A DNA stretch of 64,000 nucleotides, taken from IMG/VR virus record IMGVR_UViG_3300042363_000940. One strand, given 5' to 3'. Shown in pieces: positions 5,085-49,105 of this stretch. A model generated the notes under the pieces. That model searched no databases and had not been told where the DNA came from. It saw nothing but the letters and a program-made list of their open reading frames with translations. This stretch comes from a virus (lineage: Duplodnaviria > Heunggongvirae > Uroviricota > Caudoviricetes). The translations under genes were made by a program, and so were the position numbers. Positions within the stretch are counted from its first letter, which is position 1. Each line of letters begins with the position of its first letter.

Positions 5085-5822
5085 TTACCAATAACCCACA
5101 TCTTTTTTAAAGAAATCGTTATTGCCCCTGTTTCTGTAACTCTTAATGAGTAACTTAATCATACCAAAATACCCCATCTTTTTAAACCTCCTATCATCTT
5201 GACCAATATAGTGATTTGAAATTTTAAAGTTTTCGGGGTAAAACTTCTTACTCAATACATAATCCTCAGAGTGATTTAATGTTTCATCAAACCCACCGAA
5301 AAGATTAAACATCTTTCTATCAACCATGAAATAGGTTCCAACTGCAAAGGGGGTGACCTTACTAACAAAGTAATTCACGATATTAAACATTTTAAACATA
5401 AGTGAAGTTCTAAAATCATTACCATATGATTCTAATTTACAGGTTAATAGTTGTAATTCCCTCTCTTCCATTTCATTTAATGTATTTTTAATGGTATGGG
5501 AGTCATCTAAAATTACATCACCGTCAATGAATAAGATATATTTGGTATCAACCAATTTTGCCCCATTGTTTCGACCAACTGATACGGTACCCCCATCAAT
5601 CAATTCTATCTTTAGTTTCTTCTGATAAAAGAATGATTGTTTTTTAATTACCTTTCGAGTTCCATCATTACTATGATTGTCCGCAATTATCACTCTTGTT
5701 CCCCGTATACCGGTTTGGTTATGTATTGAATGTAATGTACGCTCAATGTAATTTGCTTCGTTATATGTTGGGATAACGATTGTAAGGTTATTTTTTATTG
5801 AAGTGTTTTGTGAATTTGCCAT
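5085..5822 (-). CDS. family-2 glycosyltransferase (GT-A fold)
   Basis: N-terminal TIVIPTYNEANYIERTL...IIADNHSNDGT and a DXD motif FIDGDVILDD. Confidence 0.8.
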   Translation of the reverse strand: MANSQNTSIKNNLTIVIPTYNEANYIERTLHSIHNQTGIRGTRVIIADNHSNDGTRKVIKKQSFFYQKKLKIELIDGGTVSVGRNNGAKLVDTKYILFIDGDVILDDSHTIKNTLNEMEERELQLLTCKLESYGNDFRTSLMFKMFNIVNYFVSKVTPFAVGTYFMVDRKMFNLFGGFDETLNHSEDYVLSKKFYPENFKISNHYIGQDDRRFKKMGYFGMIKLLIKSYRNRGNNDFFKKDVGYW

Positions 5823-7419: not shown

Positions 7420-7444
7420 TGTTCCAAATATAAAAGATTATTTT

Positions 7445-7457
7445 GAATATTCCAAAT
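7445..7457 (-). promoter_or_regulatory. conserved promoter-like element
   Basis: TTTGAATATTCCAAAT upstream of the start at 7419. Confidence 0.45.
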
Positions 7458-7513
7458 AATACCCTGATTTTTTTCAAAATCGGTATATATATGGATTATA
7501 AAAACTTATAACA

Positions 7514-7918
7514 TTGGACAAAATAGAAGTATTTGAACCCTATCATCAACACCTATTATTAAAGTGTTGGATGACTAATCCTCCTAAGAAGGAAGAACAA
7601 CTAAATAAATGGTTTATACACCTCGTAGATTCGGTTGGAATGAGGGTAGTTGCTGGGCCAACCAGTGTCTATGTATCCGACCCAGGTAATGAGGGGTTAA
7701 CGGGAACCGTAACATTAGCCACATCACACGGGTCAATACACATTTGGGACCATTATGAGTTACCAATGGCACAGTTTGACATCTACAGTTGTAAATGTTT
7801 TAACTTGGGTACCGTATTAAAGTGTTTTGAACCTTTCGGTATGGTAAAGGCAGAATGGGTTATGATTGACAGGAATGGTAGTCCTGTAATCACCGAATCG
7901 GGAGTGTGGGAAGGTTAA
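7514..7918 (+). CDS. S-adenosylmethionine decarboxylase (SpeD/class 1b)-like pyruvoyl-dependent decarboxylase
   Basis: Motif TVTLATSHGSIHIWDHYEL aligns with the SpeD self-cleavage region VxxxESHxxIHTWPE; the size (134 aa) fits the small bacterial/archaeal form; Glu is replaced by Thr before the Ser. Confidence 0.7.
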   Translation: MDKIEVFEPYHQHLLLKCWMTNPPKKEEQLNKWFIHLVDSVGMRVVAGPTSVYVSDPGNEGLTGTVTLATSHGSIHIWDHYELPMAQFDIYSCKCFNLGTVLKCFEPFGMVKAEWVMIDRNGSPVITESGVWEG

Positions 7919-8005: not shown

Positions 8006-8566
8006 ATGGGTGGAGATATACGTAAAATGATTGATAAAGTAAAAAACTTTAAACATTTTGTGAATGAAAGATTGGAATTAGGTAGTCAAGAAAGAATTCA
8101 TCTAAGTAAAACACCAATTGATAAAATTGAAAACGGAGTTAAAAATCAAGATGTTCACGGAAAACCGGGAGGTTTATGGTATGGATTCGGTGATAATTGG
8201 ATTAATTTTAAAAAATATGGTGTTACTTGGGATACCAAGGAAAACGTACCATTAAAGGGTGTGATGAATAGTGAGGTTTATATTTATAAATTATATTTAG
8301 ATATGAGTGAAATTATGATTCTGAATACAGAAGATTTATTTAAAGAGTTTACAGAAAAATATAGTACACACCAAAATTATCCACACAATATTAATTGGGA
8401 TTTAGTTTCAAAAAAATATAAAGGTATCGAGTTTCCAAATTATGAAGAGATTGGTGTTAGAAATTTACATCAAGAATCAAAAGAATATTATTGGGCATAT
8501 ACCATTGATGCAAATTCTGGTTGCATTTGGGATGTATCAGCAATAAAAAAATTTAGATTATTATAA
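8006..8566 (+). CDS. hypothetical protein (186 aa)
   Basis: ORF preceded by the AT-rich TTTATATATAAATAAAAAATT element. Confidence 0.55.
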   Translation: MGGDIRKMIDKVKNFKHFVNERLELGSQERIHLSKTPIDKIENGVKNQDVHGKPGGLWYGFGDNWINFKKYGVTWDTKENVPLKGVMNSEVYIYKLYLDMSEIMILNTEDLFKEFTEKYSTHQNYPHNINWDLVSKKYKGIEFPNYEEIGVRNLHQESKEYYWAYTIDANSGCIWDVSAIKKFRLL

Positions 8567-11261: not shown

Positions 11262-12143
11262 TTAAACTTTTAATTTTTTTATTATTATTTCCGCAGTTGC
11301 TCTCGGACTCAAAAATTCTTCGTAAAATTTTTTATTATTTAATCCCATTTGTTCCAATTTTTTAGGATTTTTGAGTAAGTTTCGTGCGATTTTAATTCCA
11401 TCACTCCAATTTTCTACTTTTATAACTGGAATATTTTTATAGTATTCCCTATCGGGTAATTCTTCTGTTATAACTACACAACCATACTTCATGGCCTCAT
11501 ACAATCTAAATGTTTCTGAATTTGTCCAACCTCTTGGACAAAGTGCTATTTTACTATGTTGTAAAAAGTATTGGTATAATTCCGAGTCCATTCCTTTGTT
11601 AAAATCTTCGTTGAATTGAAACAAATCTCTATTCCATTTCCATTGAAGGATTTTATTCAAAATTTTCAAAGTTTTATTTTTGTAGAATGATAATCCCATG
11701 GATAACCAAAACTTACGAATACCACTCAACTCACTTGCCAATACCAATCGGTTTCTATTTAAACAACCAATAAAAGATATGTTGTATAGTCTTTCACCCA
11801 TTGGTATTATTTCGGAATTTATACTTTCAGTAAAATAACCCAAAGGTATTGATGTTGTATTTTTGGTATTCCAATAGTAATTTGAAAAAATATGAGTGTA
11901 ATCGTTTTTTATCTCATTTATATTATTTCTTTTGTTTTCACTACTATGCCAAATTAAAACTTTTTTGGAATGATTGATTCGTTTGGGTAGTGGAGTAGGA
12001 GTTTTACTTCCATTAGTAGAATACATCACAAACAAAAATTCATCAAAATTTTTAAGTTTCTTTTTTAGATACTTAAACATTTCTCCCGTGTACCCTCCTT
12101 TGTATTTTTGCTCATTACCCAACTCATCAATAACATTTTTCAT
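11262..12143 (-). CDS. hypothetical protein, possible GT-B glycosyltransferase
   Basis: C-terminal FRLYEAMKYGCVVITE resembles the GT1 C-terminal E...EAmA.G.PVI motif; weak. Confidence 0.45.
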   Translation of the reverse strand: MKNVIDELGNEQKYKGGYTGEMFKYLKKKLKNFDEFLFVMYSTNGSKTPTPLPKRINHSKKVLIWHSSENKRNNINEIKNDYTHIFSNYYWNTKNTTSIPLGYFTESINSEIIPMGERLYNISFIGCLNRNRLVLASELSGIRKFWLSMGLSFYKNKTLKILNKILQWKWNRDLFQFNEDFNKGMDSELYQYFLQHSKIALCPRGWTNSETFRLYEAMKYGCVVITEELPDREYYKNIPVIKVENWSDGIKIARNLLKNPKKLEQMGLNNKKFYEEFLSPRATAEIIIKKLKV

Positions 12144-14002: not shown

Positions 14003-14797
14003 TTAACTTAAAGAGTTAGGTAAGTATAGTAATGTTGGATTCTTTTTTTGTATATCTAATTCGGGATAGTTCTCTTTGAATTTCATAACATCAAACTTTT
14101 TAGTAATTAAGTGATGACCATTCTTAGTTGGAATAACCGCCTCGAGTTTCGGTCCCACTTTATAACCTATTGGCATACCCGCACTGTCGAACTCAACTTC
14201 AGTAATTGGTTTACATTCGTATTCAATAAATGCAACCATAAGAGGACTCATTTCTTTTATGTCATCAACATCAATAATCCATCTCTTCTCCTGTGTTTTA
14301 ATTTGACCAACAACTGAATCAAATAACCCCTTTTGGTTGTGTTGACCATTCTGAATACGTTGTGCCAAATCAACCATCATGTTTAATGACACATCAAAAT
14401 GGTTTTGTTTCTGAACGTGGATGTACGCTCTCGCCTTAAACATCTCACAGAGTTGTTTAATCTCTTCATACCTACGTTCAAGATGTTCGATACTTTCAAT
14501 ACAGTAAGTCTTAATTGTCCTTACCGATTGGTGATTATCTCTTTCACCTTCGGGTTGGTCTTTCTTACGTTTAAAAACATATAACATGTAGAAGTCCCCA
14601 CTTTTTTCAAAGTTCAAGAGAGGTCTAATTAAATCTATATTGTCCATACTACTTTGTTTATTGTTTGTCATTCTTTTTTCTTTTAACCATTCGTTTAATG
14701 ATTCACTTGTTTCGTTACTTAACGCATTGTCAAGTTTTTCTTCGAGTTTGTTTAAGTCTAAGTTGCTCACTATTGTTCCATTGTTGGTTTTAACCAA
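14003..14797 (-). CDS. hypothetical protein (264 aa)
   Basis: ORF. Confidence 0.55.
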   Translation of the reverse strand: MVKTNNGTIVSNLDLNKLEEKLDNALSNETSESLNEWLKEKRMTNNKQSSMDNIDLIRPLLNFEKSGDFYMLYVFKRKKDQPEGERDNHQSVRTIKTYCIESIEHLERRYEEIKQLCEMFKARAYIHVQKQNHFDVSLNMMVDLAQRIQNGQHNQKGLFDSVVGQIKTQEKRWIIDVDDIKEMSPLMVAFIEYECKPITEVEFDSAGMPIGYKVGPKLEAVIPTKNGHHLITKKFDVMKFKENYPELDIQKKNPTLLYLPNSLS

Positions 14798-15504
14798 AGA
14801 GTATTATCTTTGAAGATGTAGTTCCTTAATGCTGGGTATTCATGTAATGTCTTCAATGTTTTAACGGTATCGTGTTTAAAACATTTGAATAATTCCTCTC
14901 TAATTCTTTCAGTTGATACAACACCCATCTTACCAACATAATCATAATCTTGCATAATACTATCCATCGCCGGTCCTATCCAAAATCCTTTGGTTATACA
15001 GAACCTGATTGCTCTCAGAATACGAAGTGGGTCGTCATCAAATGTATCGGTACATGGTAATGGTGTACGAAGATACCCTCTCTTTAAATCCTCAATCCCA
15101 TTAAAGTAATCTATGATATTCCCATCACCGTCTTTTGCCAACGCGTTCAATGTAAAATCCCTACGTTCTAAATCGTCATATAAGGTCCCTGGTTTAACGA
15201 TAGGTATTCGGGTACCACTTATGTATCCAACTTCCTTTCGAGCCATTACGAAGTCTGCAACACCTTGGTAACGGTGTCCCTCAGGGAACCGTGCTCTAAT
15301 GGTGAAACATGATGGTGTTTCCAAGAATATTTCAAACTTTTCAGAGACAAGATAATAGTGTAAAACCGTGAACATATCCTCCGCCTCAGTGTATAAATCC
15401 AATAAAGATTGGGTGGGTACTGCAACATAATCCACATCTTTAGATGTTAACCCCAAGATTTCGTCCCTTACTTTTCCCCCAACTTCGTAAAATGTAAAAC
15501 TCAT
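14770..15504 (-). CDS. cca: tRNA nucleotidyltransferase (CCA-adding enzyme)-like, minimal head domain
   Basis: YEVGGKVRDEILGLTSKDVDYVAV (GGxVRD, DxD) and the RRDFTLNALA motif typical of class II CCA-adding enzymes / poly(A) polymerases. Confidence 0.8.
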   Translation of the reverse strand: MSFTFYEVGGKVRDEILGLTSKDVDYVAVPTQSLLDLYTEAEDMFTVLHYYLVSEKFEIFLETPSCFTIRARFPEGHRYQGVADFVMARKEVGYISGTRIPIVKPGTLYDDLERRDFTLNALAKDGDGNIIDYFNGIEDLKRGYLRTPLPCTDTFDDDPLRILRAIRFCITKGFWIGPAMDSIMQDYDYVGKMGVVSTERIREELFKCFKHDTVKTLKTLHEYPALRNYIFKDNTLWLKPTMEQ

Positions 15505-16978: not shown

Positions 16979-17356
16979 TTAATTGGAAACGATTAACTGG
17001 TCCACTATCATCTTGGCAGTGGCGTAGTTTGTTGCTAATGGTACTTCGTGAACATCACAAACTCTCATTAACATTTGTACATCGGGTTCATGGGGATGTC
17101 TATCCAACGGGTCTCTAAAGAATATAACCGCAGTCATTTCTTTTCTTGCGACCATTGCTGCGATTTCAGCATCACCACCCATAGGACCTGAGTTGACTGT
17201 GTCCACTTTAGTTATGCCAGCAAACATAATTCGTTTACCTGTTGTACCTGTGGCAACAATATCAACATCTTCTCGGTTGAAGAAATATAATCTCTTCATC
17301 ACAAAGGCAACCATGTCCGCCTTCTTCCCATCATGGGCAATCAATGCAATCTTCAT
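16979..17356 (-). CDS. mgsA: methylglyoxal synthase
   Basis: IALIAHDGKK...ATGTTG...GPMGGDAEIAAM...IFFRDPLDRHPHEPDVQMLMRVCDVHEVPLATNYATA aligns end to end with MgsA. Confidence 0.9.
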   Translation of the reverse strand: MKIALIAHDGKKADMVAFVMKRLYFFNREDVDIVATGTTGKRIMFAGITKVDTVNSGPMGGDAEIAAMVARKEMTAVIFFRDPLDRHPHEPDVQMLMRVCDVHEVPLATNYATAKMIVDQLIVSN

Positions 17357-22665: not shown

Positions 22666-23589
22666 TTATTTAATACCTATCATTGAACTAGTTTTGTCCC
22701 CTAACATCGTTTCGGGTAACTTACCATTCCATTTGTTAATCCACTCAAGTTGTAACAACATAGGGGTAATTGTCTTTTGTTTTAGACTGTTTGCCTCTGC
22801 CTCAGCCTTCGCTGCGGTTAACATTGCCTGAGCGTTACCGTTGGCGGTTGCGATTTTAATCTTAGCCTGAGCCTCAGCAGTTTTAACTTGATTTTCAGCC
22901 ATCAAAGAACTTTGTACGGCATTATTCTTAGCCTCGATTGACTTTTTAAATGTCTCAGGATAAATCAAATTAGAAGTGAATTGATTAATAACAAATCCTT
23001 CTTTTTGTAATTGACTCTCCAACAATCTACGAACCTCGACTTCAAACACCGCTCTATTTGATATGAGTTCATCTGCGGTATACTTATTGGTTGCCAAACG
23101 GAACGCATCGTACACTGCGGTCTTTAAAAATCCCTCCTCAATCTCGGGTAATGACCTACGATATTTCGCGAAGATGAATGGGACTCTTTCTCGTTGAACC
23201 GAATAGTTCACAATTGGGGATACATGGAATTCACTACCGTCTTTTGAGTTAACGATAAATGAGTTATCCGCATCTTCTGTCTTGGTGTATTCTTTGTGTT
23301 GGATGTAAATCGGGAACTCATAAATTTTTGTAGTTAATGGATTGTAAAACACCATACCGGTACATTCCGTAACATCATCCACTCCTTTACCTGTTCCATA
23401 AAGATTAACTTTAACACCTACGTGTCCTGCATCGATTCTCTCACATGAGAAGAATAACGTGATAAGTAGAATAAATCCTACGACTCCTAAAATAATTGAT
23501 TTCATTGTTTTTTTTCTTTTTATTTGTTCTTGTAATTTACGTTCTTGACGTTCCTTTTCTTGTTGTAAATAATAATTCTGGTAATCCAT
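22666..23589 (-). CDS. SPFH/band-7 (stomatin/prohibitin-like) membrane protein
   Basis: N-terminal transmembrane helix and the Ala/Gln/Glu-rich block KTAEAQAKIKIATANGNAQAMLTAAKAEAEA typical of SPFH proteins. Confidence 0.75.
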   Translation of the reverse strand: MDYQNYYLQQEKERQERKLQEQIKRKKTMKSIILGVVGFILLITLFFSCERIDAGHVGVKVNLYGTGKGVDDVTECTGMVFYNPLTTKIYEFPIYIQHKEYTKTEDADNSFIVNSKDGSEFHVSPIVNYSVQRERVPFIFAKYRRSLPEIEEGFLKTAVYDAFRLATNKYTADELISNRAVFEVEVRRLLESQLQKEGFVINQFTSNLIYPETFKKSIEAKNNAVQSSLMAENQVKTAEAQAKIKIATANGNAQAMLTAAKAEAEANSLKQKTITPMLLQLEWINKWNGKLPETMLGDKTSSMIGIK

Positions 23590-35220: not shown

Positions 35221-35760
35221 TTAGTCTACGTTTATCTTTATCTTTGTTTTTTCTCCGTTTGGTTGTGAATACACCGCATGTTGTGGTGTTAGTTCGTAAT
35301 TTAAACCTATCATCTTCCTAATGTACTTATTACCCGTTCCCGGTTTAAGATATGCCACGGTTAAATGTGGGTGGTAATCAGGATAATCGTTTGTGTGTGG
35401 ATACCCTCTCAATTCACCATTTGCATCATGAAGACTGTCACCCTCAACATCGAACTTTAATACATCATATTGTTTGTTCTTAAACAATGACGGGTTATGT
35501 ACTTTACATGATGGGTATGTGTGTTTATTCAATACATTTTTTACATCATCAATGGATACACCATCGTGTAAACCATATAGTAATGTGGTATGTGGTTCTG
35601 TCTCCAATCCGAATGAACCATCTTCTTCTTCGGTGTAAACATCGTTAGGGTCAATCATACCGTGGATGTACTTCATTTCAGGAAATGCGAAGTACAACAT
35701 TGCACAACCAAATTCGTACTTTGGTTTGTTTTCTTCATTAATAATATCCATTAGTTTCAT
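35221..35760 (-). CDS. 2H phosphoesterase (LigT / Acb1-like) family protein
   Basis: Two H-x-T/S-x motifs: PHTTLLYG and HPHLTVAY. Confidence 0.7.
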   Translation of the reverse strand: MKLMDIINEENKPKYEFGCAMLYFAFPEMKYIHGMIDPNDVYTEEEDGSFGLETEPHTTLLYGLHDGVSIDDVKNVLNKHTYPSCKVHNPSLFKNKQYDVLKFDVEGDSLHDANGELRGYPHTNDYPDYHPHLTVAYLKPGTGNKYIRKMIGLNYELTPQHAVYSQPNGEKTKIKINVD

Positions 35761-36258: not shown

Positions 36259-36546
36259 TTACTCAACTTCGGGCGTTTCTTCCGTACTATTTAATATAAT
36301 AATTTCCTTATGTTCCTTATCAACTAACAACGCAGTTACTGGTTTATCGACCCTATAGAAATGTTCTCCATCGAGTATTCCTTCTTCTCCATTAACCATT
36401 GAGTATTCCATAAACTCCTCAGGGAGTTTGTTAATCCATTCTTTTAATTCTTGTAGTATCATAATTCTAATTTGATAAATGTTTCTTTTTGTGTTGTAAT
36501 AGATTACCATACCCACCAATTTGTTTGCTACAAATATCACAAACAA
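36259..36546 (-). CDS. hypothetical protein (95 aa)
   Basis: ORF; overlaps the 3' end of the homing endonuclease ORF, so one of the two may be shorter. Confidence 0.35.
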   Translation of the reverse strand: MFVIFVANKLVGMVIYYNTKRNIYQIRIMILQELKEWINKLPEEFMEYSMVNGEEGILDGEHFYRVDKPVTALLVDKEHKEIIILNSTEETPEVE

Positions 36547-37129
36547 ATTTTTCTAAAGTTTTACCTTTGTTCCATGTAGGTTTTCCCTTTTTGGTTTCAC
36601 TTATTTTTTTACTATGTTCTTTTGTTCTTGGTGGTTTTGGTTTCCTTAATTTTTCTCTATTCTCTTCTTTTTTCATTGGATTATTATCACCTGATAATGC
36701 AATACTCATTTTATATCTATACTCATCAGATTTATGAAATCCATGTGATATTCTTTTTTGTATTGTTTCTTCAGATTGCGTTACCCCAATTTGATACTCT
36801 CTTAATTTTTGTTTATGCTCTTCTGTTTTTGGGTATCTTAACTTTTCTCTAACTTCATCTGATGGATTGAATAACCCCTCACCGCCATCTGTCATATTTG
36901 TCAATGTATCTCTACCATATTTTTGAATTAAATATTTTTCAGTATCACATGCACCTTCCCATTCAATATCCGATTCAATAATTTCAACATCATATCCATA
37001 TTTAGCAACAACGTTTTTCCAATGTATGTTTCTATTTCTATAAGAATAAGCTCTTTCTTCATAAAGGCCAATCCCAACATAAAAAACTTCATTAGTATTT
37101 TTCTTTTTGTGTAAATAAACAACTGCCAT
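36467..37129 (-). CDS. GIY-YIG homing endonuclease (free-standing, Seg/I-TevI-like)
   Basis: VVYLHKKKNTNEVFYVGIG (GIY-YIG), NUMOD-like K/R-rich repeats, C-terminal CDICSKQIGGYGNLLQHKKKH zinc finger. Confidence 0.8.
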   Translation of the reverse strand: MAVVYLHKKKNTNEVFYVGIGLYEERAYSYRNRNIHWKNVVAKYGYDVEIIESDIEWEGACDTEKYLIQKYGRDTLTNMTDGGEGLFNPSDEVREKLRYPKTEEHKQKLREYQIGVTQSEETIQKRISHGFHKSDEYRYKMSIALSGDNNPMKKEENREKLRKPKPPRTKEHSKKISETKKGKPTWNKGKTLEKFVCDICSKQIGGYGNLLQHKKKHLSN

Positions 37130-37200: not shown

Positions 37201-38493
37201 TCAATTGGACAAGGGCGCCTTAATTGTTGAATGCGATTGGTAATTATCCGTTTTAAAAGTGATATCCACATCTAAAGTATTAATAACCTCATCTACGGTT
37301 AATAAATGCCAATTTTCATTACCTGAATTGATTTTTAATGTGGGTAATTTAAATGGTTCTCTTGTGTGATTTGGTATTTTGTAAGAATTATAATACTCAC
37401 TTAAACCACCACCGAATGGTACTTGTTCATCAACCGCTGTTTTATAAAAATCACCCATTGCGGTCTTTAACAATTCTGTTCTCTCTTCGTGAGTGTATTT
37501 TCTTCCAATCTGTTCTTTAGCCTGTTCAATATGATTTGAATACAAATGTACATCACCTAAATTACCAATCAACTCATCAGGTACCATATTAACAGTTTTA
37601 GCAATTATTTCCAATAACAATCCATAAGATGCAATGTTGAATGGTAAACCTAAGAATGTATCTACTGAACGTTGATTCCACATTAATGAGATTGCTCTTG
37701 TTGGGATATTATGATTGTTTAGAACTTCTAATGTCCTTTCTTCAGGAATTACTGTCCCATAATTACCACCTCTTCTAAACTCAGAAGGGTCTAAATCTCT
37801 TTTTGTAAATTCTAATACTCTATCATTCAAACTCAACTCTCTTGTATAAACTTGAAATCCATAATGACAAGGAGGTAAAGTCATTTTATCCAACTCCCCC
37901 ACATTCCAAGCACTAACCATTAATCGTCTTGAGTCTGGATTTGTTTTAAGGTCGTTGATTAGATTTTGGATTTGGTCTATTGGTGGGTATTTGAAATATG
38001 ATACCCCATCGAGATATTCATCCTCGGTTTCCCAACTTCTCCATTGTTTACCATATATTGGACCTAACTCACCCCATTTCTTAGCAAACTCATCATCGGT
38101 TTTGATTTTGTCAATAAATTCTTCTATTGTAAATGGTTCAGTTAATGTTCTATTTTTCTTAGAATTCTCTAATAATTTGGTTTTACCAACATATTCACCT
38201 TTATTATATCTTTTAATATAGGCTTGGTAAGCATCACCATTCCAAATGTGACAATTGTTATCAACTAAATATTTAATGTTTGTATCACCACGTAAGAACC
38301 ATAATAATTCAGTTACAATAGTTTTCCAAGCCATCTTCTTGGTTGTAAGTAAAGGAAACCCTTCACTCATTTTATGACGTATTTGTCTACCAAATACTGA
38401 AATGGTACCACCATTTCTTGTTTCTTTCTTAACTCCATTATCAAGAATGTCTTGTAGGAGTAATTGATATTGTTTATCTATGTTATTCATCAT
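37201..38493 (-). CDS. thyA: thymidylate synthase ThyA with three large insertions (430 aa)
   Basis: FPLLTTKKMAWKTIVTELLWFLRGDTN, LPPCHYGFQVY (catalytic Cys), QRSVDTFLGLPFNIASYGLL, DVHLYSNH; extra segments of about 50, 45 and 50 aa relative to E. coli ThyA. Confidence 0.9.
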   Translation of the reverse strand: MMNNIDKQYQLLLQDILDNGVKKETRNGGTISVFGRQIRHKMSEGFPLLTTKKMAWKTIVTELLWFLRGDTNIKYLVDNNCHIWNGDAYQAYIKRYNKGEYVGKTKLLENSKKNRTLTEPFTIEEFIDKIKTDDEFAKKWGELGPIYGKQWRSWETEDEYLDGVSYFKYPPIDQIQNLINDLKTNPDSRRLMVSAWNVGELDKMTLPPCHYGFQVYTRELSLNDRVLEFTKRDLDPSEFRRGGNYGTVIPEERTLEVLNNHNIPTRAISLMWNQRSVDTFLGLPFNIASYGLLLEIIAKTVNMVPDELIGNLGDVHLYSNHIEQAKEQIGRKYTHEERTELLKTAMGDFYKTAVDEQVPFGGGLSEYYNSYKIPNHTREPFKLPTLKINSGNENWHLLTVDEVINTLDVDITFKTDNYQSHSTIKAPLSN

Positions 38494-38852
38494 TCAAATG
38501 TTTGTATTTTGGCATCTACTTCTTTTAATTCTGACCATGTTCCAAGATATGTGATTGCCCTAACTTTCCTGTTATCAATCCACACATACTCTTGTCCGTC
38601 TTTGATTCTTGGTTTGTCCATAACCAATCCATGGTATTTAAAACCTTTTTCTTTTAACCACGTTTCGGTAACTTCTCTGTCTTTACTTTCTCTTGCAGTA
38701 AAGAAGGTAATGATATGACCTTCATCATACCATTTATTGATTATATCCAATGCGTTTGGGAAATGATTTGCGGTTACATATAAATGACTGTCTTCGTTTT
38801 TGATGTCATCACAGATTGTTCCGTCGATATCGATTAAAAATACCTTACCCAT
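38490..38852 (-). CDS. small HAD-family phosphatase
   Basis: MGKVFLIDIDGTICDD (DxDGT); start trimmed to the ATG at 38850-38852, 4 nt downstream of the GS stop. Confidence 0.6.
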   Translation of the reverse strand: MGKVFLIDIDGTICDDIKNEDSHLYVTANHFPNALDIINKWYDEGHIITFFTARESKDREVTETWLKEKGFKYHGLVMDKPRIKDGQEYVWIDNRKVRAITYLGTWSELKEVDAKIQTFE

Positions 38853-38856
38853 TTTA

Positions 38857-39987
38857 TTATTCTTCGTCTTTTTTATACTCTTCAAATAATTCATCGTTTG
38901 AAAGTGTTCCGTATTTTGTTGACAAGTCATCGGTTTTAATTTCAGCGTACATTACATGTAATGTATTTTTTAACTCATCTGCTAATGATAGTGATTTACA
39001 AATAACAGTTAAGATTCTGTAAGGGTCAGCGTTTGAACCGGGTCGTCTATCTTCAAGATAACCCCTCCACGTTTCTCCGACGGTTTTTGGAACCCTAATT
39101 GATGCACCTCTATCAGATACACCCCAACTGAATTTATCAATTGATTGTGTTTCAAATTTACCCGTTAATCTTAAATGATTATCGGAACCATAATTTTCAA
39201 TATGAATTTTTGTCCTACTTTCAAATGTTTTAAAGATTGCGTTGAAGTATTCTTCCCCACCTGTCTCTCTCATTTTTTGGTTTGAGAAATTGGCATGTAA
39301 ACCTGAACCATTCCATTCACCTGTCGTAATTGGTTTAGGGTGTAACTCAATTGCCACCGAATATCTTTCAGAAATTTTATTTAAGAAGTAACGAGACATC
39401 CATAAGTCATCAGCACCTTTAAGTTTACCTTTAGCAAAGATTTGATATTCCCATTGACCCAATGCAACTTCTGCGTTTGTTCCTTCAAGATTGATACCAT
39501 AGTTTAAACACATATCTAAATGTTCATCACTAATAAGTCTACCAACAACATGACCACCAACACCGCAATAGTATTTTCCTTGTGGGTCAATCATCCCACC
39601 ATTTTCAAAACCCAATACAGGTTGGTTATGTCCTGAACGAATAAAATATTCTTGTTCAAATCCAACCCAAAAATCGGTATCTTCTTCCCCAACTTTTGCT
39701 CGGTAATTTGATGGGTGAATCTCATTGTTTCCGTCAAGTACTTCACACAACACATAAACTGTTGGGTAATCATCTTTACTGTTATTGTTTTTATAAAACC
39801 TAACAGGTTTTAAGTAACAATCGGAGAAGTTACCCTCCGCCTGCATTGTTGAACTTCCATCGAATCCCCAGTTAGAGATGTCATCAATGGTTAACTCGCC
39901 GTTATAGTCAACGACTTTAATTTTACTTCTAAGATTTGGTTCGGGTGAATATCCATCCAACCAAACGTACTCAAATTTAATTTTCAT
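38857..39987 (-). CDS. glnII: glutamine synthetase, type II (eukaryote-like)
   Basis: EYVWLDGYSPEPNLRSKIKVV, NWGFDGSSTMQAEG, GKYYCGVGGHVVGR, GTNAEVALGQWEYQI, NFSNQKMRE, ASIRVPKTVGE, YLEDRRPGSNADPY all match GSII blocks. Confidence 0.85.
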   Translation of the reverse strand: MKIKFEYVWLDGYSPEPNLRSKIKVVDYNGELTIDDISNWGFDGSSTMQAEGNFSDCYLKPVRFYKNNNSKDDYPTVYVLCEVLDGNNEIHPSNYRAKVGEEDTDFWVGFEQEYFIRSGHNQPVLGFENGGMIDPQGKYYCGVGGHVVGRLISDEHLDMCLNYGINLEGTNAEVALGQWEYQIFAKGKLKGADDLWMSRYFLNKISERYSVAIELHPKPITTGEWNGSGLHANFSNQKMRETGGEEYFNAIFKTFESRTKIHIENYGSDNHLRLTGKFETQSIDKFSWGVSDRGASIRVPKTVGETWRGYLEDRRPGSNADPYRILTVICKSLSLADELKNTLHVMYAEIKTDDLSTKYGTLSNDELFEEYKKDEE

Positions 39988-41998: not shown

Positions 41999-43357
41999 AT
42001 GAAGAAAAAGATTCTATTATTATCTGATGATTTAAGAATGACATCGGGTGTTGCTACTATGTCAAAAGAATTGGTAATGGGTACTATTCACAAGTACGAT
42101 TGGGTACAGTTGGGTAGTGCAATCAACCATCCTGAGGCAGGTAAAATTGTAGATATAAATGCGGACATTAGGGAGAAGACAAGAGTACTTGATGCAAACC
42201 TTAAAATCATTCCAAGTAATGGATATGGTAATATTTTTACATTGAGGTCTCTTATTGAGTCTGAGAAACCTGACGCAATATTACACTTCACCGACCCACA
42301 TTACTGGCAATGGTTGTACGAGGCGGAACATGAGATTAGACAACAAATTCCAATTCTATATTACCACGTGTGGGATAACCTACCTGACCCAACCTATAAT
42401 AGAAACAATTATGAAAGTTGTGATTGGATTGGTTGTATCTCCAAACAAACATATGGTTTAGTCCATAGAGTGGGTAAAATGGATAACGAACCAACCTTCA
42501 AACCTTTGGAGGATTGGCAAATCAGTTATGTTCCTCACGGTATTAATTCAGATGTGTTCAAACCAACAGATAGTGTTGCTGATGATTTAAAGAAATACAT
42601 TTACGAAGATAAAGAATATGATTTTATTCTATTCTATAACAATCGTAACATCAAAAGAAAACAACCGGGTGATGTGATATTATCATATAAATTATTCTGT
42701 GATTCTTTACCTAAAGAACAATCCGATAAATGTTTATTGTTAATGCACACCACACCAATCGATGAGAATGGTACCGACCTACCGGCGGTGGCTAAAAGTG
42801 TTTGTCCCGACTATAATATTAAGTTTGTTAACTTAAAATTGGAACAGAATAAATTGAATGAGTTGTATAATATTGTTGACTGTACAATTAACATTGCGAA
42901 CAACGAAGGTTTTGGTTTGGGTACCGCCGAAAGTATAATGGCTGGCACACCAATCATTGTTAATGTCACAGGTGGATTACAAGACCAATGTGGTTTTGAT
43001 TACACCGCAGACAATTACATAACATTCGGTTCACTCCACAATAGAAAGAAACACGGTTCAACTTTACATGGTGAATGGGTTGTACCCGTTTGGCCATCCG
43101 TTAACAATCTAAATGGTTCGGTCCCAACTCCTTTCATTTATGAAGACAGAGTAAACAATAATGATGTTGCCGGTGCAATTTCTGAAGTTTATGGTTGGGG
43201 TAAAGAAGGAAGAAAAGAACGAGGATTAAAAGGTAGAGAATGGGCAATCGAAAACCTATCAAGTAAAGTGATGTGTGATTCATTAATTGATGGAATTGAA
43301 ACAACTTTCAAAAACTATAAACCTAAAAAGAAATTTGAATTATATCGTATAGTATGA
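41999..43357 (+). CDS. GT-B glycosyltransferase (GT1/GT4-like)
   Basis: NNEGFGLGTAESIMAGTPIIV matches the E(x7)E sugar-donor binding motif. Confidence 0.75.
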   Translation: MKKKILLLSDDLRMTSGVATMSKELVMGTIHKYDWVQLGSAINHPEAGKIVDINADIREKTRVLDANLKIIPSNGYGNIFTLRSLIESEKPDAILHFTDPHYWQWLYEAEHEIRQQIPILYYHVWDNLPDPTYNRNNYESCDWIGCISKQTYGLVHRVGKMDNEPTFKPLEDWQISYVPHGINSDVFKPTDSVADDLKKYIYEDKEYDFILFYNNRNIKRKQPGDVILSYKLFCDSLPKEQSDKCLLLMHTTPIDENGTDLPAVAKSVCPDYNIKFVNLKLEQNKLNELYNIVDCTINIANNEGFGLGTAESIMAGTPIIVNVTGGLQDQCGFDYTADNYITFGSLHNRKKHGSTLHGEWVVPVWPSVNNLNGSVPTPFIYEDRVNNNDVAGAISEVYGWGKEGRKERGLKGREWAIENLSSKVMCDSLIDGIETTFKNYKPKKKFELYRIV

Positions 43358-44601
43358 GTAAACCTTTTTTATTATTTAGAGGACCCGTTGAAACATTAAG
43401 TGGGTATGGAGCACACTCGAGAGATTTATTGAGGTCTCTTCGTGACATGGACTTATTTGAAATAAGGGTGGATTCGTGTCATTGGGGTTCAACACCAAAA
43501 ACGGCATTACAAGAGGATACCGAATATAATAAGTGGATACTTGCGCATATCGTTAAAGTGATACCCGCAACTCCCGATGTTTATGTTCAGGTTACAGTAC
43601 CAAATGAATTCCAAAAGATTGGTAGGTTCAGTATCGGTATAACTGCCGGTATTGAAACAACAATGGCATCAAAGGAATGGATTGATGGTTGTAACAGAAT
43701 GGATTTAATCATCACAACTTCAACCTTCTCCAAGGAAGTACTACTTCAAACCGTTTACAATGAAACTGATAACCTAACCGGTAAACTAATTAAACAACAT
43801 AAAATTGAGAAACCTGTTGAGGTTCTTTTTGAGGGTGTTGACACTGAAATTTATAATGATAAATTTTCAGGGTTAGATGTTGGAATTAACGAAGATTTTT
43901 CTTATCTTTTTGTTGGTCACTGGTTAAAAGGTAATTTAGGTCAGGATAGAAAAGATGTTGGTATGTTAATTAAGTGTTTCTCTGAGGCATTTAAGGATTC
44001 GGAAGAACAACCCGCATTAATTCTTAAAACATCTTCAGCATCTTTTTCGATAAAAGAAAGAGAAAACTTTAAGAAGAAAATTTCTGATTTGGTTAAGGGA
44101 ATTGAAAACCCACCGCCAATCTATCTTTTATTCGGTGAGTTAACAGACAAGGAAATGAATGAGTTATACAATCACCCAAAAGTGAAGGCAATGGTAACCT
44201 TAACAAAAGGCGAAGGATTCGGTAGACCTCTACTTGAGTTCTCAATGACAGGTAAACCTATTCTTGCATCTAATTGGTCGGGACATAAAGACTTCTTACC
44301 AATGGATAAGGCAGTAATGTTAGGTGGTTCATTGACTGATGTTCATGAGAGTGTTGTTGATTCATTTATCATCAAGGGGTCAAAATGGTTTACACCAAAC
44401 TATGGTGAAGTTGTTGAGATTATGAGAATGGTTAAAAATGAATATGACACGTTCTACGGTAACTCTCAAGTTTTGATGGAAGAGAATAGAGAAAAATATT
44501 CGATGTCAAAAATGACCGAGAAGTTTGAATCAATCATAACACCATATGTGGTTAAACCTAAAGAAGTTAAATTAAAAATACCTCAGTTAACAAAACTATA
44601 A
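43354..44601 (+). CDS. GT-B glycosyltransferase (GT1/GT4-like)
   Basis: TKGEGFGRPLLEFSMTGKPILAS motif; start overlaps the previous gene (ATGA). Confidence 0.7.
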   Translation: MSKPFLLFRGPVETLSGYGAHSRDLLRSLRDMDLFEIRVDSCHWGSTPKTALQEDTEYNKWILAHIVKVIPATPDVYVQVTVPNEFQKIGRFSIGITAGIETTMASKEWIDGCNRMDLIITTSTFSKEVLLQTVYNETDNLTGKLIKQHKIEKPVEVLFEGVDTEIYNDKFSGLDVGINEDFSYLFVGHWLKGNLGQDRKDVGMLIKCFSEAFKDSEEQPALILKTSSASFSIKERENFKKKISDLVKGIENPPPIYLLFGELTDKEMNELYNHPKVKAMVTLTKGEGFGRPLLEFSMTGKPILASNWSGHKDFLPMDKAVMLGGSLTDVHESVVDSFIIKGSKWFTPNYGEVVEIMRMVKNEYDTFYGNSQVLMEENREKYSMSKMTEKFESIITPYVVKPKEVKLKIPQLTKL

Positions 44602-44882
44602 TGGGATTACTTGACAATTTTAAATTAGGTAGAGAAAATGAAGACAATTCATTTTTATTTACGAACCATAACCTTCAATTATTTACATTACAACCGACAG
44701 TTACATTTAATCAAACCGAATGGATGTTTCAATTTGATGAAGGTGAACCGACGGTTTTCGCAACACAACAAGAAGAATCCAATTTAACGATAACACTCAA
44801 CAACACCAATCACGCATCGATAGAATTTACGGGACCCAATAATCAAAAATTTAAAATATTCGCAAGAGAAAGACAACAATGA
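44601..44882 (+). CDS. hypothetical protein (93 aa)
   Basis: Translationally coupled ORF. Confidence 0.4.
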   Translation: MGLLDNFKLGRENEDNSFLFTNHNLQLFTLQPTVTFNQTEWMFQFDEGEPTVFATQQEESNLTITLNNTNHASIEFTGPNNQKFKIFARERQQ

Positions 44883-45505
44883 AAATAAGTTATGCAATTA
44901 CCGTTTGTGATGAGTTACAAGAAATCAAAAGACTTGTACCGTTTCTTTTAGAACATAAAAGACCTGAAGATGAAATCATAGTTTTATATGACCAAAAAAA
45001 TGGGTCGGATGAGGTAATTGATTTCTTATTACCATTTAATAGATTCCCACATGTTCAAACATGGAGAGGTATGGTTTTCGTAAATGATTTTTCTATTTGG
45101 AAAAACAAATTAAACGATTACTGTGGTGGTGATTACATTTTACAATTGGATGCGGATGAAATGATTACCGAGGAACTAATTAAAATGTTACCGGCAATAC
45201 TTGAATCAAATCCTGAAGTTGATTTGTTTGTACTTCCTCGAATAAACACGGTGGATGGTATAACCGAAGAACACATTAACAAGTGGGGATGGAAACAAGA
45301 TGAACAGGGTAGAATTAACTTCCCTGATTGGCAGGGTAGATTATACCGTAAAGGTTTAAACTGGTATGGTAAAGTTCATGAAAAAATTATAGGGGCAAAG
45401 AAATATTCGATTATGCCTGAAGATGAGGGATTTTGTATCCTTCATCCTAAAACAATCGAGAGACAGGAAAGACAAAATAATTTTTACAGTAAAATTCAAA
45501 AGTAA
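44879..45505 (+). CDS. putative GT-A glycosyltransferase (GT2-like)
   Basis: ISYAITVCDE N-terminal pattern and DXD motif QLDADEMI. Confidence 0.5.
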   Translation: MKISYAITVCDELQEIKRLVPFLLEHKRPEDEIIVLYDQKNGSDEVIDFLLPFNRFPHVQTWRGMVFVNDFSIWKNKLNDYCGGDYILQLDADEMITEELIKMLPAILESNPEVDLFVLPRINTVDGITEEHINKWGWKQDEQGRINFPDWQGRLYRKGLNWYGKVHEKIIGAKKYSIMPEDEGFCILHPKTIERQERQNNFYSKIQK

Positions 45506-46263
45506 TGAAGTTAATTTTAGCAACTGGGTCCGATATAAATTATATGACCAAGATGAGACCATACTTTAAATCAATTGAGAAAAACTCAAACTTCGATAAG
45601 AATGTTTTGGTTTTTGTTGGTGATGGGGAAGGTTTATCATTACCATTTAAAACTATCGATATCGCAACATTATCGATTTCAGACGTACAGGCATTGAATA
45701 ATAATAAGTGTGTTCAACACGGGGATTTCTTAAACTCCAATCACTTCAATTCAATAACCCAAGATGATGACGTTATCTTCTATACTGACGGTGACATCAT
45801 CCTTCAACGTAACATGACTGACGAAGAGTTAGAACAATTCAGAAACTTCAAAGATGGTGACGTTTATGTTGGTTATAATGCATCACCAACTGACACATTA
45901 ATGATTGAATCGGGTAGATTAGGTCAAACGGGTGTTAAGGTTGACGGTGTGAGTGACAAACCGTGGGATAAGATTAAAGTCTATAACACCGGTGTTCTCG
46001 CAATGAATAAAAGAACTTGGGCTAAACTACTAAGTGACTATGTTGAATTGTATCCGTCAGTTGAACCAATGTTTGCGCATTACGCAAAACAACAATGGTT
46101 GATTTCATTTTTGATTGGCACAAGAGAAGATTACAATATAATCGAAATGCCGTACCATATCCATAATCATTTACATTTCCCAAGTCCTGAGGGTACAATC
46201 CAAGATAAAAACGGTGATGTATTTTTTAACAATAAAAAAGTATTATTCAAACACAAATGGTAG
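45505..46263 (+). CDS. putative nucleotide-diphospho-sugar transferase
   Basis: DXD-like FYTDGDIILQ; weak. Confidence 0.4.
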   Translation: MKLILATGSDINYMTKMRPYFKSIEKNSNFDKNVLVFVGDGEGLSLPFKTIDIATLSISDVQALNNNKCVQHGDFLNSNHFNSITQDDDVIFYTDGDIILQRNMTDEELEQFRNFKDGDVYVGYNASPTDTLMIESGRLGQTGVKVDGVSDKPWDKIKVYNTGVLAMNKRTWAKLLSDYVELYPSVEPMFAHYAKQQWLISFLIGTREDYNIIEMPYHIHNHLHFPSPEGTIQDKNGDVFFNNKKVLFKHKW

Positions 46264-46913
46264 AAATTTTTAAAAGGATATCTGAAATTGATATCAAAGA
46301 AATCGATTTAAATGTTTTAGAAACAATTCTCCCCACATTTGGTATGAATGGTGAGAATTCGAGAGAGTTACCTTCAGAATTGTCTGAACACTTTAATGAA
46401 GGTATTCGTTTTTGGCAGTACCCAAATCAATTTGCTCCGTATCTTAAACAAATATCAAAATATAGAATTAAATCGTATCTTGAAATTGGTTGTAGGTGGG
46501 GTGGTACGTTTATTATAACAAAGGAAATATTAACCAAAATAAATGGTGAAGTTAATGGATTCGCGTGTGACTTTATGCCACAATCAAGGATGCTTGACGA
46601 ATACCAAAAATATGGTAATTTTAACTACTTACAAACTCATAGTCAAAAATTAAAAAGAGAATCAATAAATCAAGATATTGATTTAATTTTAATTGATGGT
46701 GACCACAGTTATGAAGGGTTAAAAAGAGATTTTGAAATCTGTAAACAATATAACCCCAAATACGTATCTTTTCATGATATATGTAGTGACGCATGTCCTG
46801 GCGTTGTTAAGTTTTGGAATGAAATTAAGGAACAATATAAACACTATGAATTTATGAGTCAATATGATAGTGTTGACGGTAATTTTTTAGGTATTGGTTT
46901 AATAGAGATTTAA
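46257..46913 (+). CDS. class I SAM-dependent methyltransferase (Methyltransf_24 / CmcI-like)
   Basis: LEIGCRWGGTFII and LILIDGDHSYEGLKRDFEI motifs. Confidence 0.6.
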   Translation: MVEIFKRISEIDIKEIDLNVLETILPTFGMNGENSRELPSELSEHFNEGIRFWQYPNQFAPYLKQISKYRIKSYLEIGCRWGGTFIITKEILTKINGEVNGFACDFMPQSRMLDEYQKYGNFNYLQTHSQKLKRESINQDIDLILIDGDHSYEGLKRDFEICKQYNPKYVSFHDICSDACPGVVKFWNEIKEQYKHYEFMSQYDSVDGNFLGIGLIEI

Positions 46914-46914
46914 T

Positions 46915-48012
46915 ATGGAGTACGATTATCTAATAGTTGGTGCCGGTTTCTTCGGTTCCATATGTGCCCACGAATTAACTAAGTCAGGTAAAAAAGTTTT
47001 AGTTATTGATTCAAGAGAACACATCGGTGGCAATTGTTACACCGAGAATAAAGATGGTATCAATGTTCAAGTATACGGTGCACACATCTTCCACACATCA
47101 AACAAAGAAGTGTGGGATTGGATTAACCAATTCGCTGAGTTTAACAACTATAGACACCATGTGATTGCCAACTACAAAGAAGAATTATATTCACTTCCTT
47201 TTAGTATGTGGACATTCAATAAACTGTGGGGAGTTAAGACACCTCAACAGGCGAAAGATATGATTGCAGAACAATCAAATGATATTGAAGAACCGAGCAA
47301 CTTAGAAGAACAGGCAATCAAACTTGTAGGTAAGGATGTTTATGAAAAACTCATTAAGGGTTATACTCATAAACAATGGATGAAAGACCCCAAGGAATTA
47401 CCAAAGGAAATCATTAAGAGGTTACCAGTTCGTTTTACCTATGACAACAATTATTTCTTTGACAAATATCAAGGTATCCCAATTGGTGGTTACACTCAGA
47501 TTTTTGAAAAGTTATTAGAGGGAGTTGAGGTTAGATTGGGTGTGGATTATTTTAAAGGTAGTTTACCTAAACATAACAAAGTAATATTCACAGGACCAAT
47601 CGATAAGTTCTTCGGTTACAAGTACGGTAAGTTAGAATACAAAACAGTTAGTTTCGAACACCAGTATTATAGTTCACCAAACCTTCAGGGTGTCCCTGTA
47701 ATGAACTATACTGATGTGGATGTACCATTCACTCGTATCATTGAACATAAACACTTTGAGGGTTTAGAAACGAATGGCTCGTGGATTACATATGAATACC
47801 CACAAGAGTATGTGGCAGATAAAACTGACCCATATTATCCTGTGAACGATAAAGAGAACAATGAAATGTTTTCAAAATATAAAGAAGAGGCGGAGAAAGT
47901 TAAGGATTGTGTATTGTTTGGTGGAAGACTTGGTGAATACAAATACTATGACATGCATCAGGTTGTCGAATCAGCACTAAACTTTATTAAAAAGGAAATC
48001 GATGGAAATTAG
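46915..48012 (+). CDS. glf: UDP-galactopyranose mutase
   Basis: YDYLIVGAGFFGSICAHEL...KKVLVIDSREHIGGNCYTE...VYGAHIFHTSNKEVWDWINQF aligns with Glf along its length. Confidence 0.9.
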   Translation: MEYDYLIVGAGFFGSICAHELTKSGKKVLVIDSREHIGGNCYTENKDGINVQVYGAHIFHTSNKEVWDWINQFAEFNNYRHHVIANYKEELYSLPFSMWTFNKLWGVKTPQQAKDMIAEQSNDIEEPSNLEEQAIKLVGKDVYEKLIKGYTHKQWMKDPKELPKEIIKRLPVRFTYDNNYFFDKYQGIPIGGYTQIFEKLLEGVEVRLGVDYFKGSLPKHNKVIFTGPIDKFFGYKYGKLEYKTVSFEHQYYSSPNLQGVPVMNYTDVDVPFTRIIEHKHFEGLETNGSWITYEYPQEYVADKTDPYYPVNDKENNEMFSKYKEEAEKVKDCVLFGGRLGEYKYYDMHQVVESALNFIKKEIDGN

Positions 48013-49105
48013 TTTTGTACTTGCGGTATTCAATAAATTAGACCTCACCAAGGATTGTTATAAAAGACTTCGTGAAATCTATCCCGATGCACCATTAGTA
48101 ATCAGTAGTGGGGGTTCAACAGATGGTACCAAAGAATGGTTAGAGTCTTTAGATGACGATAATCTTTCATTTGTTCACGATGATGATAGGTTAACCTTCT
48201 CAGAAACGTATAATGCTGCAATTAAGATTGTAGATACGGAGAAACTTGTCCTTATTCACAACGATATGGTCATTGGGAGACACTTTCTCGAGAATTTGAA
48301 TAGATTACTCACACCAGACACTTTGATGTGTTATACGACCTTAGAACCACCCATTTTTGCTGGTCACCAAAGACCCGGTAAAGTGATAATGGACTTAGGT
48401 AGTTCGTTCCACGATTTTAAATGGGAAGAATTTGATTCATATGTTGAAGAGAATAAGAACAACTGTCAGATATATGATGGTGGTGTGTTCTTTATGAGTG
48501 GTTATAAGAAACTATTCGAGGATGTGGGTTACTTTGATGGATTTAGTTTTGTACCAGCGTTTGCTGAGGATGATGACTTCTTAATCAGAACCAAACTGAA
48601 GGGATATAAATTAAAAACCACATCATGCGCAATCACATATCACTTTGTTTCACAGACTTCTCGTTTCAGTGATGATTACAAGAAAGATAGATTTAAGTAT
48701 GAGGTTAACTCAAATAGAAACTTTGTTCGTAAATGGGGCATATCAATTCCATCATTCAATGAATTAAGATATTGGGAGGATAATCTATTTGTTTATAAGA
48801 CTTTCACCATGGGTTTAACCACTCGCAGTCGAGCAAGGTTATTTGAGATAGAACCGTTCTTCGATAAAATCGATTTAGGGACAATTCCCGAGGATTACAT
48901 CGAGAATGAACAGAAGAATACTCGTTATGATTTAAGGTCGAAATTTGTCCTTACAGATATCGTAGATGTGATGGTTTATGAAGTTCAACCAATGACTGAT
49001 GATGACATCTACACGTTACAGAAATTGAGGTTATCAATTCCATATTATGAACCGGGTGAATACCAAGTAGGTTCATTAAAGATAGAAATAAGAAAGGGGG
49101 TATAA
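48002..49105 (+). CDS. GT2-like glycosyltransferase (candidate galactofuranosyltransferase)
   Basis: ISFVLAVFNKLDLTKDCY N-terminal GT2 pattern; directly coupled to glf. Confidence 0.55.
   Translation: MEISFVLAVFNKLDLTKDCYKRLREIYPDAPLVISSGGSTDGTKEWLESLDDDNLSFVHDDDRLTFSETYNAAIKIVDTEKLVLIHNDMVIGRHFLENLNRLLTPDTLMCYTTLEPPIFAGHQRPGKVIMDLGSSFHDFKWEEFDSYVEENKNNCQIYDGGVFFMSGYKKLFEDVGYFDGFSFVPAFAEDDDFLIRTKLKGYKLKTTSCAITYHFVSQTSRFSDDYKKDRFKYEVNSNRNFVRKWGISIPSFNELRYWEDNLFVYKTFTMGLTTRSRARLFEIEPFFDKIDLGTIPEDYIENEQKNTRYDLRSKFVLTDIVDVMVYEVQPMTDDDIYTLQKLRLSIPYYEPGEYQVGSLKIEIRKGV

Follow-up and report, generated by a model that had tools for sequence, protein, structure and literature searches.

The SpeD-like gene and its product

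The window analysed here, a 64,000-nucleotide stretch of IMG/VR virus record IMGVR_UViG_3300042363_000940 (Caudoviricetes), carries a gene whose 134-amino acid (aa) product is a homolog of the S-adenosylmethionine (AdoMet) decarboxylase (AdoMetDC) SpeD and is predicted to be a self-cleaving pyruvoyl proenzyme (Table 1). Translation of positions 7514-7918 gives TVTLATSHGSIHIWDHY at residues 65-81 of this protein, hereafter referred to as the query.

The open reading frame (ORF) is a real gene, far from a chance ORF, and homologous to speD. The Pfam family AdoMet_dc (PF02675) matches residues 13-103 of the query with 41.4 bits against a cut-off of 25, and PHROG 3125, annotated 'S-adenosylmethionine decarboxylase', matches it with E = 3e-12. 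Its homologs form 907 clusters at 90% identity, found on contigs of up to 344 kb, the best 120 of which are 72-96% identical to the query; with E <= 0.001, the query matches 585 clusters at 50% identity. Purifying selection on the gene is strong, the nonsynonymous divergence (dN) from a 75%-identical homolog being 0.19 with synonymous divergence (dS) saturated. A public gene call on identical DNA places the start at Met20 instead, yielding a product of 115 aa; the longer form is preferred because residues 7-19, including H11 and H13 (conserved in at least 90% of relatives), are conserved in distant relatives.

Table 1. Position of the SpeD-like gene, its predicted processing products and associated features in the window
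Feature	Position	Strand	Remarks
Proenzyme coding sequence, SpeD-fold pyruvoyl decarboxylase homolog	7514..7918	+	134 aa, TTG start, TAA stop
Predicted scissile bond Thr70-Ser71	7721..7726	+	Thr70 = ACA 7721-7723, Ser71 = TCA 7724-7726
Predicted beta-subunit, residues 1-70, C-terminal Thr70	7514..7723	+	~8 kDa; inferred by homology to T. maritima chains
Predicted alpha-subunit, residues 71-134, N-terminal pyruvoyl group	7724..7915	+	By homology
His76, equivalent to T. maritima His68 (processing and catalysis)	7739..7741	+	Profile alignment; role per PMC10407285
Cys93, equivalent to T. maritima Cys83 (catalytic)	7790..7792	+	Profile alignment; PMC10407285
Loop after Trp78, residues 79-85 (D-H-Y-E-L-P-M), with 2-residue insertion and without the canonical HTWPE Pro	7748..7768	+	
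AT-rich divergent intergenic region upstream of the SpeD-like gene	7420..7513	.	Left neighbours on minus strand

Predicted fold and catalytic residues

An AlphaFold2 model of the query, built on an alignment of 116 relatives, has a predicted local distance difference test (pLDDT) of 96.4 and a predicted TM-score (pTM) of 0.87. Its best Foldseek matches in the PDB are the Thermotoga maritima class 1b AdoMetDC structures 1vr7 and 1tlu (TM-scores of 0.70/0.78; root-mean-square deviation of 2.1-2.6 Å), followed in rank by Aquifex and eukaryotic AdoMetDCs; a direct sequence search of the PDB gave only 13-19 bits for the query against class 1b AdoMetDCs. In a profile alignment with T. maritima AdoMetDC, Thr70 falls on Glu62, His76 on His68 and Cys93 on Cys83, and threonine therefore replaces the glutamate of the canonical Glu-Ser site. 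Loss of the catalytic serine would, by the terms of the original prediction, have refuted it; the residue is kept, Ser71 lying on Ser63 in the same alignment. Since the solved T. maritima chains comprise residues 1-62 and 64-130, cleavage of that enzyme takes place exactly at the Glu62-Ser63 bond, and Ser71 of the query sits in the turn between model strands 61-68 and 72-78. Fold, catalytic triad and proenzyme architecture are common to the query and the class 1b enzymes (T. maritima TM0655, cyanophage S-PM2 SpeD), as is a cleavage site located in an interstrand turn; the query differs from these enzymes in reading Thr where they have Glu or Asp before the serine and HIWDH where they have HTWPE. 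With Pfam, fold and the T. maritima alignment in agreement, the earlier description of the protein as a pyruvoyl proenzyme of the SpeD/AdoMetDC fold with Thr before the processing serine is borne out, and the query can be classed, from its sequence and its model, as a predicted class 1b SpeD-fold proenzyme that keeps the Ser/His/Cys triad S71, H76 and C93.

We consider it very probable that the query is a pyruvoyl decarboxylase. That it might instead lack decarboxylase activity, as an inactive or regulatory paralogue or as a phage S-adenosylmethionine (SAM) lyase or other enzyme with a similar fold, is suggested by the appearance of the phage SAM lyase structures 6zm9/6znb at low Foldseek rank (TM-scores of 0.45-0.47); the AdoMetDC structures match far better (0.70-0.78), and the sequence family is that of AdoMet_dc by both Pfam and PHROG. 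Such a reading, which strikes us as highly improbable, also has to contend with the strong purifying selection on the gene and with the conservation, in at least 90% of the 116 relatives and down to ~30% identity, of the triad and 14 other positions (H11, H13, M43, P49, G58, N59, G61, T63, T70, H72, W78, D89, Y91 and R120).

The residue preceding the processing serine

The Thr-Ser site of the query had originally been described as an altered self-cleavage site. It proves to be shared: besides its conservation in at least 90% of the 116 relatives, a Thr-Ser-His (T-S-H) sequence is found in ~130 of 150 diverse relatives (representatives of 50% identity clusters), only two of which carry E-S-H. 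The protein of pelagiphage HTVC201P (AXH71538) reads IETSHIAFHSWDE, with Thr directly before the processing serine, and all five translated pelagiphage proteins read I-[ED]-T-S-H...H-x-W-D-E.

The same residue is found in SpeDC, the SpeD-derived pyruvoyl L-ornithine decarboxylase (ODC) of bacteria, archaea and phages, for which Gln, Thr, Phe and Tyr were described as diagnostic (Li et al., JBC 2023, PMC10407285). The 120 SpeDC family members that we retrieved using the SpeDC domain printed in Fig. S5 of PMC10407285 have the signature MTQLIETSLISGHFAN..N..YLDVFSC, Thr preceding the serine in 120/120. We infer from this alignment that the diagnostic Thr of Li et al. is the position before the processing serine: with the four residues placed at S-5, S-1, S+6 and S+14 (numbered from the processing serine), Gln is present in 119/120 sequences, Thr in 120/120, Phe in 118/120 and Tyr in 119/120.

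The five validated AdoMetDCs inspected present an acidic residue at this position, namely Glu in the enzymes of T. maritima, S-PM2, phiYS40 and P2559S and Asp in that of Sinorhizobium phage phiN3. On the enzymes inspected, a simple rule thus holds, an acidic residue before the serine going with AdoMet (5/5 validated enzymes) and Thr with an amino acid (3/3). Judged by sequence, Thr-Ser is the hallmark of the neofunctionalised SpeD branch already described and no oddity of the query, which is a divergent new member of that branch of Li et al. 2023. The label 'S-adenosylmethionine decarboxylase' routinely given to T-S-H genes is, in turn, probably wrong.

Relationship to characterised decarboxylases and probable substrate

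Foremost among the characterised relatives of the query is the HTVC201P protein, an L-arginine decarboxylase (ADC) with a kcat/Km of 290 per M per s that acts on neither ornithine nor lysine and fails to complement an E. coli delta-speD mutant (Li et al., PNAS 2023, PMC9992855). This HTVC201P-type pyruvoyl ADC (SpeDA), labelled 'AdoMetDC', represents the 'potential fourth emergence' of Li et al. 2023. It is the best-scoring characterised relative of the query, with 32% identity over 111 residues aligned without gaps (E = 1e-25), and the two proteins have in common a T-S-H...H-x-W-D...D-x-Y-[ST]-C core, the same 2-residue insertion after the tryptophan, a similar size (122 aa against 134 aa) and their encoding by stand-alone genes of marine phages. 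The spacing from the serine to the cysteine is 22 in both, compared with 20 in T. maritima AdoMetDC and in SpeDC. Profile scores follow the same order, the query reaching 89 bits (E = 1e-29) with the pelagiphage ADC-type profile, 32 bits with that of validated AdoMetDCs and 10.1 bits with that of SpeDC (83 sequences). Significant matches in phage isolates, all at 31-35% identity, are confined to 11 pelagiphages, HTVC201P included, and an uncultured phage related to them.

The query is therefore placed, by the Thr-Ser signature that it shares with the HTVC201P ADC, among the substrate-switched phage homologs, as had been proposed. Its substrate had been considered unknown; the profile scores narrow the question, setting the query clearly nearest to the pelagiphage ADC type. 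From these comparisons it would most likely decarboxylate a basic amino acid, a reading that we favour by a little, with the conversion of arginine to agmatine as the leading candidate; taken by itself, the proposal that arginine is the substrate stands at about even chances. Arginine is favoured because the only characterised members of the T-S-H branch, which is carried almost exclusively by phages, are the HTVC201P-type enzymes, which are L-arginine decarboxylases. We rank arginine first, ornithine second and AdoMet third.

Several observations weigh against arginine. Identity to the HTVC201P enzyme is only ~32%, and in a neighbour-joining tree the family of the query (nearest relatives P0127, P0134 and P0205) and the pelagiphage group form separate sub-branches of the T-S-H clade. 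The acidic residues found in all five pelagiphage proteins at S-2 (Glu/Asp) and at W+2, two positions after the conserved tryptophan (Glu), are replaced in the query by Ala69 and His80, and its whole close family has Ala or Ser at S-2 and His, Asn, Lys or Ala at W+2. These two positions are our own candidate determinants and are unpublished; should their acidic residues bind the guanidinium group, specificity may differ. Neither agmatinase (speB), agmatine iminohydrolase and N-carbamoylputrescine amidohydrolase (AIH/NCPAH; aguA/B), speE nor homospermidine synthase (hss) was found in the window, in the ~10 kb to its left or around homologs. Finally, among the phage SpeD homologs similar to that of HTVC201P, those designated LBP and UCP02-04 are ODCs and UCP01 uses both ornithine and arginine.

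The last two points are also the ones that would fit a pyruvoyl-dependent L-ornithine decarboxylase of SpeDC-like function, producing putrescine directly and independently of host agmatine-processing enzymes: a stand-alone gene devoid of an agmatine-pathway partner agrees with the published view of speDC as easier to integrate than speDA. SpeDC and the query further share the SpeD fold, the conserved His and Cys and the loss of the canonical Glu-Ser, and Thr, invariant before the serine of SpeDC, is on the list of ODC-diagnostic residues (PMC10407285). Of the four diagnostic positions, however, only Thr agrees (1/4), the query having Val for Gln at S-5, Ile for Phe at S+6 and Gln for Tyr at S+14. 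The 2-residue insertion, the Trp and the His that follows the serine in the query are all missing from SpeDC, BLASTP matches between the query and SpeDC family members have E-values of 0.003 or higher only, and the SpeDC profile score of 10 bits compares with 89 for the ADC type. In the neighbour-joining tree, built without the phage ODC sequences (LBP ATV46410, UCP01-04), SpeDC is sister to a single star-like clade made up of the T-S-H proteins. We regard ornithine decarboxylation as unlikely.

Could the query be a bona fide AdoMetDC with an unusual Thr-Ser site, supplying decarboxylated AdoMet to a host spermidine synthase as cyanophage SpeD does? It passes the Pfam AdoMet_dc threshold and has the same fold and triad, and the residue before the serine varies among pyruvoyl enzymes, as illustrated by the Lys-Ser of E. 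coli class 1a SpeD. Position in a clade is also fallible, the validated AdoMetDC of phage phiN3 grouping with ODCs in the tree of Li et al., PNAS 2023. The Pro that follows Trp in the HTWPE motif was described as fully conserved in bona fide AdoMetDCs (PMC10407285); it is absent from the query, but this is not an absolute marker, the validated enzymes of phiYS40 (HYWIDE) and phiN3 lacking it as well. Against this reading, the query scores 29.4 bits with TIGR03330, the NCBIfam equivalog model of bona fide AdoMetDC (EC 4.1.1.50), far under the cut-off of 75.65. All five validated AdoMetDCs inspected have their acidic residue before the serine, delta-speD is not complemented by the HTVC201P protein with its own T-S site, no significant cross-matches link the canonical phage SpeDs (150 records, mostly from cyanophages) to the relatives of the query (12 records), and speE was not found nearby. 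AdoMet is, in our estimation, probably not the substrate, and a genuine AdoMetDC bearing this site seems very unlikely.

The replacement in the close family of the query of both acidic residues conserved in pelagiphages may alternatively point to a substrate new to the SpeD fold, one that is neither AdoMet, arginine nor ornithine. Variation at S-2 and W+2 extends to about half of the T-S-H clade, so that the clade may hold several specificities, and a single T-S-H sub-branch has been assayed so far. The association between S-2 and W+2 across the clade is weak (odds ratio of 2.3, p = 0.018, phylogeny ignored) and was not used as evidence. Nothing speaks positively for any particular alternative substrate; the acidic residues D79, E82 and D89 remain in the query, and all SpeD homologs assayed to date use AdoMet, arginine or ornithine, none of them lysine. 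We thus view a new substrate as quite unlikely, and give an equally small chance to a fourth SpeD-fold activity in the abundant jumbo-phage subfamily to which the query belongs (motif [AS]-T-S-H...H-x-W-D-[HN]). If such a new specificity did exist, the large virus-borne T-S-H clade may hold several of its kind.

Proposed mechanism and role

Under the arginine decarboxylase reading, the proenzyme would cleave itself by serinolysis between Thr70 and Ser71 into a beta chain of ~8 kDa and an alpha chain of ~7 kDa, the N-terminal Ser71 of the latter being converted to the pyruvoyl cofactor. His76 and Cys93 would assist processing and decarboxylation, with roles as in AdoMetDC, and the resulting (alpha-beta)2 enzyme may engage the alpha-amino group of its basic amino acid substrate in a Schiff base, CO2 then being released. 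The agmatine produced (or putrescine, if ornithine were the substrate) could then be turned by host enzymes into a larger polyamine supply in the infected cell; for this marine jumbo tailed phage, the SpeD-like gene would be an auxiliary metabolic gene that stands alone. Phage replication depends on polyamines, and SpeD homologs of phages have been recognised before as auxiliary metabolic genes; the present finding opens no new kind of biology. What it adds is reach, the neofunctionalised T-S-H branch now extending from small podoviral pelagiphages to abundant marine jumbo phages.

The original prediction had further tied the SpeD-like gene to a glutamine synthetase (GS)-like gene (38857-39987, minus strand) in a joint manipulation of polyamine and nitrogen metabolism, noting that its product belongs to one superfamily with gamma-glutamyl-polyamine synthetases (PuuA/GSI-type ligases). 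The best NCBIfam match of the GS-like product is GlnII, along the entire length (320 bits, E = 2e-95, under the equivalog cut-off of 500 bits); other GS-type models (type I, type III) match it only weakly, with 28-42 bits. Given that it is of the GlnII type and that its gene lies 31 kb away from the SpeD-like gene on the opposite strand, with no polyamine-pathway gene found in the window or in the ~10 kb to its left, the suggested link gains nothing from these results, and a joint polyamine and nitrogen module is speculation. The GS-like gene overlaps a 146-aa ORF (38490-38930) with weak acid-phosphatase/LNS2-like matches.

Genomic context and family distribution

The window has a GC content of 30-40%, and no tRNA genes were found in it. 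Contigs with identical genes reach 166-201 kb, and the source is a tailed jumbo phage, uncultured and probably marine since its nearest relatives are marine pelagiphages and Vibrio phages. The window encodes PcfJ, a thymidylate synthase, a DNA methylase and numerous glycosyltransferases, and it holds a 3223-aa ORF. Another of its proteins has a peptidoglycan-binding domain and matches endolysin families weakly, and one more is a virion or tail protein that distantly resembles counterparts in jumbo Vibrio phages.

The SpeD-like gene and a 186-aa ORF directly downstream of it (8006-8566, plus strand) are paired on the plus strand within a block of minus-strand genes. Neither Pfam nor PHROG matches this ORF, which is kept beside the SpeD-like gene in near-identical contigs and absent beside 75%-identical homologs. 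No convincing promoter and no Shine-Dalgarno sequence were detected in the upstream intergenic region, where promoter-like matches did not exceed those of a shuffled control, and the same scan, no better for promoters and terminators than on shuffled sequence, found no terminator. Neighbouring genes are not conserved, being entirely different in related phages with a 75%-identical protein. The pelagiphage ADC gene, carried by a podovirus genome of 40-55 kb, adjoins a ribonucleotide reductase gene in four of the six loci read, whereas that of the query, in a jumbo phage genome of at least 201 kb, is flanked by glycosyltransferase and oxygenase genes.

Relatives of the query were found at only eight loci in 185,579 species genomes, all on contigs of metagenome-assembled genomes (MAGs) of inconsistent taxonomy, and the family is therefore essentially viral. 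Next to one of these relatives (53% identical; L022, a Peribacteria-labelled MAG contig), two adjacent ORFs (953-2203) divide the gene of a class II aminoacyl-tRNA synthetase between them, which may mean an alternative genetic code or a frameshift. A Rosetta-stone test revealed no fusion to a polyamine enzyme: the longer relatives are joined either to GIY-YIG SegE-like endonucleases (P0201, P0232, P0241, P0269) or, in metagenomic proteins with a T-S-H SpeD-like N-terminal domain (P0132, P0133, P0143, P0147, P0149, P0161, P0172, P0208, P0213, P0249), to a conserved domain of ~170 aa. The latter has no Pfam match, carries the motifs ...FDLT.EW... and ...DRI...GY...NCR.IP..LN.AKWKW, and is unrelated to the 186-aa downstream ORF.

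In Microcystis phage MaAM05 (L016, MW495066.1, ~247.2-249.1 kb), two speH paralogues adjoin speE. One of them, speH_2, is 59% identical to T. maritima SpeD; the other, speH_1, reads AESHITFHSFID, in which the canonical Pro is missing, and may represent a copy with a shifted substrate.

Other genes of the phage

A 125-aa protein encoded at 16979-17356 (minus strand) matches methylglyoxal synthase models (NF003559, 154 bits against a cut-off of 84; TIGR00160, 146.9 bits, exactly at its cut-off); to our knowledge, methylglyoxal synthase is not an established phage auxiliary gene. The thymidylate synthase (37201-38493, minus strand) is 430 aa long and matches Pfam in two stretches, residues 7-220 spanning profile positions 1-161 only, which suggests a large insertion. 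A faint NUMOD3 match in the adjacent gene (36467-37129, minus strand) would fit a homing endonuclease. The 3223-aa ORF (54325-63996, minus strand) has its start at the window edge and no Pfam match, and the exact protein is absent from the contig index.

Glycan genes are dense at 41999-49105 (plus strand), 5085-5822 (minus strand) and 11262-12143 (minus strand). They comprise two glycosyltransferase family 4 (GT4)-like genes, GT2 transferases, a UDP-galactopyranose mutase (247 bits), a methyltransferase and an RXYLT1/GT47-like transferase; a 2-oxoglutarate (2OG)-Fe(II) oxygenase and a class I/II aminotransferase lie near them. Three minus-strand regions (35221-35760, 14770-15504 and 22666-23589) hold a weak match to Acb1, a protein acting against the cyclic oligonucleotide-based antiphage signalling system (anti-CBASS), with a 99-aa SET-domain protein nearby, a PolyA_pol-head (CCA-adding-like) nucleotidyltransferase and an SPFH/Band 7 protein. 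In the same phage, ~2-5 kb to the left of the window (L032, 13044-15532), are encoded a Thg1-like tRNA-His guanylyltransferase and a 496-aa enzyme of the NAMPT/NAPRTase family.

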